DNA of 64,000 bases. Source: Eledone cirrhosa (taxonomy: Eukaryota). The notes below the pieces were generated by a model that saw only the letters and a program-made list of their open reading frames with translations, made no database searches and was not told where the DNA came from. A program made the translations under genes and the position numbers. Each line of letters begins with the position of its first letter. Positions within the stretch are counted from its first letter, which is position 1. Of the stretch, positions 19,165-62,600 are shown one piece after another. The stretch covers positions 65,720,001-65,784,000 of the forward strand of contig OZ024742.1 in the NCBI GenBank assembly GCA_964016885.1. Direction: 5' to 3'.

Positions 19165-19258
19165 ACCCCGACAGCTGAGCTCAAGCCGTTTCGACGGCTA
19201 ATTCTGGACTAAATGAAAATTTATCCTGGTATTTAAATAGCCGATCTTCTCAAGGGGT
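19165..19258 (-). ncRNA. Type I hammerhead, U3-A8 variant (H2)
   Basis: Reverse complement of 20154-20247. Confidence 0.75.
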
Positions 19259-20153
19259 AATTCCATATATGGTCAAAGTGATTGTCAAAAATCAGTAGTA
19301 ATTCTGTGGTTGCAAATTAGTAGGGGAGATGGTGGCTAAACCTGCCAGTAGGAGAAAGAGGGGAGGGGGTGGAGTAGCCCCAATCAAGCGTTTGTAGTAC
19401 CAGCTACAGCTGGGCATGAGGTCAAAGAAGATACAGGGGAGGGGGAGGAAGTCGGAACGGTAGGTAGAACAATGGGGGGTAGAAATATATAGGAAAGAAA
19501 AAATACTGAGAGTGAAGAAAAGCAAATAAGTGTAAAGAAAAACAAATGAGTGTAAAGAAAAAAGTAAAGTAAATTAAATTCTACGACCTAGGTCTTTAGC
19601 TATTGTTAGTCTAGAATAAATAAATAAATAAAGAAAGAAAGAAGTAAAGAAAGAAATAAAGAAATAACGAAATAAGTAAAAGAACTAGGTGGGACGGAAT
19701 AGGCGAGGACCCTTTTAAGAGGTATAAGTACGTAAATGATACGGTGACGGGTCAACAAAAGGGGCCAAAATACTAAAGAGACTACCACGAAATAAACAAT
19801 AAAGGTTTCCATCCCGGGCACAATTCCAGCAACCACCCGGTGCAGCAAAGTGAACTAATACGAGATAATAATTCTGAGTCCCGAGAAAAATATATACTAA
19901 TGCTAACTCTAAAAGATCTATTTCTACCCCCCATTGTTCTACCTACCGTTCCGACTTCTTCCCCCTCCCCCTCCCCTGTATCTTCTTTGACCTCATGCCC
20001 AGCTGTAGCTGGTACTACAAACGCTTGATTGGGGCTACTCCACCCCCTCCCCTCTTTCTCCTACTGGCAGGTTTAGCCACCATCTCCCCTACTAATTTGC
20101 AACCACAGAATTACTACTGATTTTTGACAATCACTTTGACCATATATGGAATT

Positions 20154-20247
20154 ACCCCTTGAGAAGATCGGCTATTTAAATACCAGGATAAATTTTCATT
20201 TAGTCCAGAATTAGCCGTCGAAACGGCTTGAGCTCAGCTGTCGGGGT
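20154..20247 (+). ncRNA. Type I hammerhead, U3-A8 variant (H2)
   Basis: acccc-TTGAGAA-gatcggcta...tagccgtc-GAAA-cggct tgagctc agctg-TC-ggggt; all three stems pair; GUC triplet. Confidence 0.78.
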
Positions 20248-20334
20248 CTTACTGGTTCCTATATATATATATATATATATATATAAAATAAAGTTAAATA
20301 AAAGTCAAATGATTAAAATTTAGCTTCGTTTATT

Positions 20335-20389
20335 ACTGCTATATATATTTCAGTGACAGCCATCTTTGGCTGTGACCTCTTCAGGCAGT
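20335..20389 (-). ncRNA. Type I hammerhead (H4)
   Basis: actgc-CTGAAGA-ggtcacagcc aaagat ggctgtcact-GAAA-tatata-TA-gcagt, then aataaa. Confidence 0.8.
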
Positions 20390-20925
20390 TTGAATTAGTA
20401 TGGTATAGACAAGTACATATGTTGTTTAGGTGTATGATATTGTCAATACTCTGATATGCCCAGTTCCTTGTTGGGTTGTTAATTCGTATATATATATACG
20501 TGTAGACATAAGGGAAATGCATGCGCGGCGCAGCAACCGGTGGCATGAACAGAACAAGCTGCTAGAAATGGCACCCACTAAAATGGCGAAACATTCTCCT
20601 GGTGAGTGTGTACATGTGTGATTTAGGTGAGGTTGGTTTCTCATTTCAATTTATACTTTTAATTTTATGTTTTTCCTATGCCTCTAGTAGCTTATATTCT
20701 CTTCACGCTGGTGGTTTGGAATTCCTGTAAAGAAAAACACTCTCTGTGTCTTTCCCCTCTATATATTGTATATATATATATATATATATATATATATATA
20801 TATATATATATATATATATATATATATATATATATATATATACGTTATTCCGGGTTGAATCGGAAGTAACCACAGTAAGTAAGGTACTCAATACATAGCA
20901 GAGTATAACAGTTTTAATATAGATG

Positions 20926-20976
20926 AGATTCTACAGGACTAGAACTGTTTCATTCATTAGAAATCATCAGGAATCT
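20926..20976 (-). ncRNA. Type I hammerhead (H1)
   Basis: agattc-CTGATGA-tttctaatgaat-GAAA-cag ttctagtc ctg-TA-gaatct. Confidence 0.85.
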
Positions 20977-60316: not shown

Positions 60317-60765
60317 TTTTTCAGTTATAATATAAAGCGCTCAACAGTATTGGAGCAAGATACATGGATATTTACATAATATTTACTAGTATTTTACATA
60401 ATATTTACTAGTTGTAACCCAACAATTTAAATATAACTTTCCATATATATATATATATATATTTATATATATATATATATATACATATAAATATATATAT
60501 ATATATAAATATATATATATATATATATATATATATATATATATATATATATATATATATATATATATATAATTGGTTATGCACGAGTGTATTAATGTTT
60601 TCCAGGACACAGTGTTATGTACCGTGTAGTGGAATGTCAGCTTACAACAGAGTGGTGCTCAATGAAATGCAGAAAATAGGTGTATATTCCAGTTTAGCTA
60701 TATTCCGGGGCGTGTATAAAGAATTAAAAAGAACAGAAAGATGCAGTAAAAGAGATTTATTCGGT

Positions 60766-60880
60766 TCTTACGTACGTTTCAATAGACATCTATTTGCCTA
60801 GATCTCGCTACATCTATAATATTATATATTTAGTAGAGCATTCGATATCCAATGCACAATCGATCCCATATCATCAGAGA
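60766..60880 (-). ncRNA. Type I hammerhead with about 90-nt stem II insert (H9), same sense as the Naiad ORF
   Basis: tct-CTGATGA-tatggg...tctatt-GAAA-cgtacg-TA-aga; palindromic stem III; stem I only 3 bp. Confidence 0.7.
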
Positions 60881-60897
60881 TTATGTTTGAAACATAA

Positions 60898-61012
60898 TCT
60901 CTGATGATATGGGATCGATTGTGCATTGGATATCGAATGCTCTACTAAATATATAATATTATAGATGTAGCGAGATCTAGGCAAATAGATGTCTATTGAA
61001 ACGTACGTAAGA
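60898..61012 (+). ncRNA. Type I hammerhead (H9), mirror copy
   Basis: Same motif on the plus strand. Confidence 0.7.
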
Positions 61013-62559
61013 ACCGAATAAATCTCTTTTACTGCATCTTTCTGTTCTTTTTAATTCTTTATATATATATATATATATATATATATATATATATATATAT
61101 ATATATATATATACATATACATATACAAATATATAAATATATATACCTATAGTTAGGATTGTTAAATGACAAATAGCAACATAAATGTACTTATGCAAGA
61201 CGCAATATATATATATATATATATATATATATATATATATATTGGGAAAAGCTCACAGGCATAGATATGGGCGTACATACGTACACATATGCATGCATAA
61301 ACACCACAAATACACACACTCATATATATATATGTATATATATATATATATATATATATATATATATATATATATATATATATATATATATATATATATG
61401 TATATATTCATGGATCTATCGATCTGTTTTGATTCTGTTCTGGCTGAACAACTATTTTATCAATAACACCAAACACTGATTTTTCGTGAAGTAGGAAAAC
61501 ACTTCTGATTATCACTAATTGCTTCCCAACAGCATTGGTGTTTCATTCATCATTTGGCAATCAGTCTAATTGCTGCTGGTCCGTCCCCTTAAAGTAGTAG
61601 TGGGCGGGTTCAATTCTAGACAAAATTTGAAAGCTGATTAATTTGTCGTCTAGATAGCTATCGATTTTAATATATATATTTTAATATATATATTTAATTA
61701 TATATATATATATATATATATATATATATATATATATATATATATATATATATATATATATATATATATATGTATGTATATATATATATATATATATATA
61801 TATATATATATATATATATATATATATACTCATATATATGCATATATATATATGTGTGTGCGTATGTGTGTTCGCGGAGTTTCTGTGTTTGTGTGTGTAT
61901 ATATATATATATATATATATGCTGTAAGTTGCGCACGCAAGTAGGTACACTTCACTACAATGCCTAAAACTTATTGATTCCACGTCTCAATTATTTTAGA
62001 TTGCATTTCAAAATTACGACAGAAATGCATGTTTGCATTATTCATTCAAATACACATTTTATCTACAACGTATAATTACTTAAAATTATACACACGCAAC
62101 ACACACGCATACACCCCCACCCGCACACACATATATATACATATATATAATATAATAATGATAATAAAAAGGACGATTTGTTATGTGTTCATTATGTTTA
62201 TCGAGTAGTTACGTGCGTTTCGCTATTGATGAGCTTAAGGTTCGATCTGTATCGATCTAGCCCGACTCTGGAATCTCTATACTGACAAAAAATTACGCAT
62301 CGAGTGCTCACTCTGGTGAACCTACAGTAACTGGACGTTACATTCCTCATATGTATATATATATATGAAAATAGGGAGAAAAAGACGATTATTAGGATGA
62401 AAAATATTTTTTTTCCCTTTTATTTTTTTTCTCTTTTTTTCTGGGTTAGAAAATGTTTAAAACAAAATATTTTATTTTGTGAGAAGTGTTAAGGAATTAG
62501 TTAATTTATTTATTAATTAACAATGGCATTTATTTATTTATTTATATATTTAATAATTG

Positions 62560-62600
62560 TTTATTACCGGTTTCAGCATTTTATGCATTATCAAAGGGGG
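62560..62600 (-). ncRNA. Hammerhead-like U3-A8 core in the 3' UTR/pLTR of the second Penelope-like element
   Basis: TTGATAA-t gcat aaa atgc t-GAAA-ccgg-TA-ataaa; stem I poorly paired. Confidence 0.5.

Follow-up and report, generated by a model that had tools for sequence, protein, structure and literature searches.

The hammerhead ribozyme cuts RNA after N17; G12 serves as the base, and the acid is the 2'-OH of residue 8, which the pair between residues 3 and 8 holds in position. Natural hammerheads in which this pair is U3-A8 in place of C3-G8 have been reported, with earlier in vitro activity cited (Perreault et al. 2011, PMC3088659). Among the minimal hammerheads of Schistosoma Penelope-like elements (PLEs) there are about 1300 U3-A8 and about 2000 C3-G8 motifs (Cervera and De la Pena 2014, PMC4209133), and the 56 motifs in Figure S3 of that paper comprise two U3-A8, one U3·G8 (Saccoglossus 1) and no C3·A8. 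In the Poseidon PLE of the anole (PAc), single 3-8 mutants lose cleavage and the double mutant partly regains it (PMC11167929). Here we analyse 64,000 nucleotides of the Eledone cirrhosa genome (contig OZ024742.1, positions 65,720,001 to 65,784,000, hereafter the window), where four motifs, H2, H5, H6 and H7, are best read as type I hammerheads with a U3-A8 pair in the pseudo-long terminal repeats (pLTRs) of PLEs, with a predicted cut after N17 and a 3-8 pair that is likely under weak, not strict, selection. We give this reading a probability of roughly 0.6. The U3-A8 core is already published and gains only new carriers here; the part worth keeping is the stepwise history recorded in the lineage of H2.

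U3-A8 hammerheads in the window and across the genome

The U3-A8 motifs and the insertion that carries two of them are the following.

20154 to 20247, plus strand: H2 hammerhead, with U3 at 20159, A8 at 20164 and a predicted cut after C17 (20242), located in a Hydra-like PLE insertion, in its inverted, 5'-truncated arm.
19165 to 19258, minus strand: H2 hammerhead in the main arm of the same insertion, with UUGAGAA at 19253.
19073 to 20262, both strands: the entire H2 insertion, a truncated PLE end plus its inverted arm, between (TA)n tracts.
28721 to 28767, minus strand: H5 hammerhead, U3-A8, with a dimer-type stem III, at a truncated PLE end from a second Hydra-like family.
29870 to 29907, minus strand: H6 minimal hammerhead, U3-A8, with a palindromic CCGG loop III, at the truncated end of a Neptune-like PLE family.
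62565 to 62594, minus strand: H7 hammerhead remnant, U3-A8, with a CCGG loop III and an unpaired stem I, at the 3' end of a Neptune-like PLE.

The UUGANAA cores that a first-pass annotation of the window had described are in place: UUGAGAA at 20159 (plus) and 19253 (minus), UUGAUAA at 28763 (minus) and 62594-62588 (minus), and UUGAAAA at 29903 (minus). In each of them stem II, GAAA and a UH cleavage site come next, in the order of type I. The core U4 G5 A6 N7 x8 A9, G12 A13 A14, the A15.1-U16.1 pair and H17 are present in all four motifs. The mirrored copy at 19165-19258 does carry the motif and is part of the same insertion as 20154-20247, not a second event, given that the arms of the inverted repeat (19150-19448 and 19964-20262) are 100% complementary; positions 19073-19180 of this insertion match the start of the open frame of the family. 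Using a stem-checked descriptor, with locally shuffled windows (n=60) and reversed sequence as controls, we obtained four U3-A8 matches in the window (H2 twice, H5 and H6), compared with 0.02 on average, and never more than 1, per shuffled window. In 1.05 Mb of loci fetched from the same genome (L numbers below; G000:C numbers are genome positions), which are enriched for these families and are no census, the descriptor gave 300 matches versus 3 in the reversed control. Outside the relatives of H2, the 3-8 pair was Watson-Crick in all but two single matches of this set.

The minimum-energy fold predicted for H2 is a hammerhead with three stems as a monomer, while stem III of H5 and H6 is completed only in the predicted dimer, so that the earlier statement that all three stems pair in these motifs applies to H2 as it stands and to H5 and H6 as dimers. 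PLE hammerheads reportedly cleave as dimers, according to a 2017 paper. In the window copy of H7 (the motif at 62588) stem I is reduced to 1 bp, and U·U occupies positions 10.1/11.1. By folding z-score the four motifs do not stand out (-0.1 to -0.9), and for this reason it is the layout of the motifs, not their stability, that carries the support. Rfam reported no hammerhead in the window at the gathering score, missing the C3-G8 motifs of the window as well, and the 150 listed of 171 matches at E<=1 included none of the U3-A8 motifs, only miRNA noise driven by microsatellites. The window copies are likely inert, truncated stubs.

Family counts were obtained as exact pattern matches across the 3-Gb genome of the species, with 2207 for H2, 857 for H5, 6907 for H6 and 349 for H7. 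The U3-A8 pair was found in all of the first 100 listed matches of H2, of H5 and of H6 and in 30/30 fetched matches of H7; C3-G8 was absent from the 2207 H2-pattern matches and from the listed copies of the other three families. U3-A8 is thus the majority state of all four families, in agreement with the earlier view that these motifs are not decayed CUGANGA hammerheads. Within the U3-A8 groups N7 varies (A, U, C or G) while A8 stays. The expectation that a standard CUGANGA search would miss such copies was borne out: among motifs ending in CGAAACCGGUH (the CCGG-loop type), 18,072 have UUGANAA and 6 have CUGANGA, with 13 and 145, respectively, in the reversed controls. In this genome, tens of thousands of motifs would escape a search of that kind. 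Calling the variant rare was mistaken, considering that it is already published for PLEs (PMC4209133) and is very abundant here.

In the 30 fetched H7 loci, stem I is under 3 bp in 21, including the window type, and 4-5 bp in the other 9, and positions 10.1/11.1 are U·U in 27 and U·C in 3. The H7 subfamily without stem I is a second damaged ribozyme that spread. The first 100 listed of the 18,072 UUGANAA matches of the CCGG-loop type contain at least two further U3-A8 families with a CCGG loop III and a different stem II (G000:C1:986942 and C1:14371324). Separately, one H2 copy (L050:1400-1530; G000:C9:18397771) shows about 10 T-to-C changes within 110 bases of the ribozyme strand, with additional ones upstream. 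The pattern resembles hyper-editing, A-to-G on the other strand, that reverse transcription then fixed.

A C3·A8 grade among the relatives of H2

The claim that C3 and G8 change together fails in the H2 lineage, where a grade of older sister subfamilies was amplified with C3·A8. A pattern for the older type of H2 gave 11 matches, 8 of them C3·A8, and a DNA search with one C3·A8 copy returned 40 scored matches at 90-100% identity. CUGAGAA is found in 30/30 fetched copies, the query itself being C3, and the other core positions are kept in 29-30 of the 30. With a wider pattern we obtained 2301 further matches, none of them counted in the earlier patterns; the first 100 listed comprise 82 U3-A8 (N7 = C, A, U or G), 16 C3·A8 (14 with G7), 2 U3·C8 and no C3-G8, which extrapolates to roughly 300 or more C3-G7-A8 copies genome-wide.

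The pLTR trees were built from 66 and then 98 copies, leaving out short copies, subsampling the young family and removing positions 3, 7 and 8. They place subfamily A (U3-A8) next to B, C and D (C3·A8, which is no Watson-Crick pair), followed by F and E (U3-A8, E being the window family), with starred branches between. The order recurs in a separate tree of 22 fragments of the open reading frame (ORF), on which a single clade of U3-A8 groups is rejected (p-AU 0.00055). Since the U3-A8 groups form one clade on neither the ORF nor the pLTR trees, at least one C-to-U restoration is required under any root; when the ladder was rooted with the H3, H5, H8 and H9 proteins, both tested roots were allowed (p 0.38 and 0.23). 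The change at positions 3 and 8 was stepwise, and pairing was likely regained at least once. One D-type insertion (L336) has U3 in both arms. Recombination, considered as the origin of the ladder, is not needed, as the pLTR and ORF trees agree.

Between B, C and D the ORF shows ratios of non-synonymous to synonymous change (pN/pS) of 0.10-0.24, from few changes (4-18 per pair), and this purifying selection suggests that the C3·A8 lineages likely moved with their own protein; the private ORF changes of the C3·A8 subfamilies number 110 synonymous and 220 non-synonymous. Across the H2 subfamilies U4, G5, A6, A9, G12, A13, A14 and H17 are invariant. Varying sites among B-D amount to 0/46 in core and stems versus 28/286 in flanks and loops (p=0.02), where the flank columns include slippage-prone tracts. 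Over all six subfamilies they amount to 3/46 versus 115/274 (p=7e-7), a contrast that is partly circular because the pattern used to collect A and F itself prescribes bases of stem I, the core and stem II. We consider the chances about even that a full compensatory walk is preserved here, in which three successive autonomous subfamilies reached hundreds of copies with C3·A8 (or a slipped C3-G7) and the rest intact, pairing then being regained as U3-A8, perhaps twice.

The count of single versus double variants proposed in the first-pass annotation was also run. It showed no C3-G8 in the H2 family. As each copy takes over the 3-8 state of the element it came from, copy-level counts are uninformative on selection for catalysis, and we rejected them as a test of it. 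Eighteen of the 2207 H2-pattern matches lack U3 (15 C3·A8, 2 A3 and 1 G3), and no U3 with a base other than A8 occurs among the first 100 listed copies of the young H2 family. Nine of the 15 C3 copies are of the window type, about 0.4% of a family whose median divergence is 0.8%, and the other 6 derive from older subfamilies. The window-type singles are post-insertion mutations at about neutral divergence and have no bearing on selection.

Carrier elements

In the genome the hammerheads lie in the pLTRs of elements with reverse transcriptase (RT) and GIY-YIG domains, arranged as tandem or inverted insertions, and family ORFs with the RT YxDD motif and clade motifs adjoin each of them. The H2 family has an ORF of 784 amino acids (aa) and tandem units 3543 bp apart; H5, H6 and H7 likewise flank RT-endonuclease ORFs. 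The H2 and H5 ORFs share RWR and CNCx5C, with DKT in H2 and DKA in H5, and TA tracts bound both of their insertions in the window. The H6 ORF shows GxKF, DKG, a Cx4CxxC linker and, at its C terminus, GIY-YIG with internal cysteines; Pfam detects RVT_1 and GIY-YIG on it, and a PDB search with it gave no match. The linker finger of the H6/H7 type is common to Neptune and Nematis. H7 copies are broken, with 50-54% protein identity to H6, and the two families have loop III in common, whereas the two groups of ORFs are about 22% identical to each other. By these motifs, H2 and H5 would be Hydra-like and H6 and H7 Neptune-like PLEs.

The description of the families as unrelated was accordingly overstated as a four-family argument, given the kinship of H6 and H7. 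The tree among the Hydra-like families is star-like and neither recovers nor rejects an H2+H5 clade (p=0.24), a sister relationship that their similar stem III had suggested. The motifs point to U3-A8 in two deep PLE clades, and not to four shown-independent origins; with C3-G8 as the ancestral state and joint descent of ribozymes and ORFs, two or three origins would follow.

Other PLE features of the window, among them two C3-G8 motifs used for comparison, are listed below.

58131 to 60340, minus strand: Hydra-like PLE ORF that consists of a 677-aa open frame and a C-terminal piece and shares 40% identity with the ORF of the H2 family.
63084 to 63870, minus strand: broken RT-thumb and GIY-YIG fragments of the H7-carrying Neptune-like element, 36-57% identical to the H6 ORF.
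20340 to 20384, minus strand: H3, a canonical C3-G8 hammerhead of another Hydra-like family, with 8409 genome matches.
56695 to 56744, minus strand: H8, a C3-G8 hammerhead, the inferred 3' motif of the Hydra-like ORF of the window.

H3 and H8 belong to Hydra-like families other than those of H2 and H5. H3 has C3-G8 in 98 of the first 100 listed matches, and the repeat that contains it (20279-20485) recurs in inverted orientation at 40346-40552, with 88% identity and without a descriptor match. The spacing of H8 from its ORF equals that beside a related ORF in L193.

Several further observations were made on these and neighbouring elements. In the H6 Neptune-like element (L146:6013-7008, minus strand) a separate 332-aa open frame lies upstream of that for the RT and starts right behind the 5' hammerhead. 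At L146:704 (plus) and L163:498 (minus) there is a C3-G8 hammerhead whose stem I equals that of H6 and whose loop III is related; it follows a Hydra-like ORF in L145 at a distance of about 1.1 kb, which hints at ribozyme exchange or convergence between the clades. A compact C3-G8 family with a CUAG loop III (L170:1921 and 2390, minus, about 470 bp apart; L142:2464, plus) is possibly a non-LTR retrozyme. The window also holds further long, near-perfect palindromes and inverted repeats (94-100%) of the truncated-PLE-insertion type at 18181-18947, 60715-61063, 39142-40104, 20910-21653 and 54156-54919, a weak RVT_1 fragment of another retroelement at 51814-52290 (minus; E 0.002), and, at 22600-25400, a 2.8-kb G/T-rich trinucleotide array with strong skew and long low-complexity open frames on both strands.

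Selection on the 3-8 pair and comparison with known systems

Under weak selection, H2 would cut as a monomer, and the cutting form of H5 and H6 would be a dimer of tandem pLTRs, made via the palindromic stem III. Cleavage would probably be slow or helped by the protein of the element, as reported for the anole Poseidon element (PMC11167929). It may bring a modest benefit when tandem transcripts are processed, sufficient to maintain the fold and eventually to mend a broken pair, and too small to stop a mismatched lineage from spreading. We favour weak selection because the fold was held, the mismatch was tolerated through three subfamilies and the pair was likely restored later, which suggests that cutting helps the element without being essential. 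The anole mutants fit this reading, as C3G or G8C abolished cleavage and left in vitro insertion normal (PMC11167929).

In addition to the slippage and circularity in the site contrasts, other points weigh against this reading. The H2 ladder allows both tested roots, the clade names rest on motifs and the tree contains no reference PLEs, and Pfam does not recognise the Hydra-like ORFs. In a pairwise scan of a type III hammerhead only the C3G/G8C swap rescued activity, the other double mutants there being low (PMC9901934), so that the activity of U3-A8 would depend on context.

The main alternative is that cleavage is strictly required. The C3·A8 copies would then still cut, thanks either to a C·A+ wobble or to a slip of the core that pairs C3 with G7 (CUGA-GA plus an extra A), and U3-A8 would be one of several solutions. 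In favour of this stand the G7 found in all three C3·A8 subfamilies (30/30 fetched copies, and 14 of the 16 C3 matches among the first 100 listed), where N7 is variable in the U3-A8 groups, and the otherwise unchanged core of the grade; an extra base after A9 is, moreover, the PLE consensus (PMC4209133). However, G7 may be inherited from a single event, the young U3-A8 family and a basal copy (L337) also have it, and single changes at these positions had low activity in the published scan (PMC9901934). On balance, we consider a strict requirement unlikely. To our knowledge, no active hammerhead lacks N7, which counts against the slipped core.

The opposite possibility is that the fold is kept for a non-catalytic task, such as RT binding, the start of reverse transcription near the tail, or a promoter or splicing signal, with residues 3 and 8 drifting and U3-A8 hitch-hiking with successful source elements. 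The amplification of subfamilies with C3·A8 or without stem I would be expected in that case; ribozyme-dead anole mutants insert normally in vitro, no reads in the anole end at the cut site (PMC11167929), and Naiads lack canonical hammerheads. This explanation is nonetheless quite improbable in view of the Watson-Crick 3-8 pairs outside the H2 relatives, the catalytic-core positions that stay invariant across subfamilies, and the likely restoration of the pair at least once. Decay of CUGANGA hammerheads, or chance matches in AT-rich DNA, would agree with the near-zero folding z-scores, the empty Rfam search and the missing stem I of H7, but it is hard to reconcile with thousands of genomic copies that share U3-A8 or with the excess of descriptor matches over both controls, and we regard it as extremely improbable. 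As a general account it is refuted by the family counts, and its reach is limited to H7, where stem I was lost.

Two studies leave open what purpose PLE hammerheads serve (PMC8557442, PMC11167929). Natural alleles with which to test that purpose are offered by a lineage of high copy number and constrained protein, whose broken 3-8 pair stands between paired relatives, and, if our reading is true, the natural series is a ready set for asking whether hammerhead cleavage matters for PLE transposition. The H2 ladder would also document, as is rarely the case, an intermediate of compensatory change in the core of a catalytic RNA. Our literature search found no natural C3·A8 core family or compensatory intermediate, although Przybilski and Hammann 2007 or the 2017 PLE dimer paper may cover mismatch variants; a term search of a 2026 preprint on retrozymes and PLEs gave no passage on core variants.

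Among the systems described, the motifs most resemble the U3-A8 hammerheads of Schistosoma mansoni Cercyon and other metazoan PLE hammerheads (PMC4209133), which are likewise type I, lie in pLTRs and have a short stem I, and which share the palindromic stem III for dimers, the U3-A8 covariation and the inverted pairs from truncated insertions. They differ from these in that the extra base after A9 is missing from H2, H5 and H6, that stem III of H2 is monomer-competent and its stem II long, and that the carriers are Hydra-like and Neptune-like by motifs. The same covariation appears in Perreault et al. (2011, PMC3088659) as several scattered examples, whereas here it occurs in families of hundreds to thousands, together with a mismatch grade. 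With the Hydra clade PLEs (Craig et al. 2021, PMC8557442), the carriers of H2 and H5 share RW[K/R], DK[T/A], CxCx5C, a single ORF, (TA)n targets and hammerheads; the hammerheads described there are canonical, and the H2 unit measures 3.5 kb, in contrast to the usual <3 kb. The Anolis element PAc (PMC11167929) also has a pLTR hammerhead with a 3-8 pair, although this is a canonical C3-G8 pair in another clade and was assayed in vitro, whereas the motifs described here are known from sequence alone.

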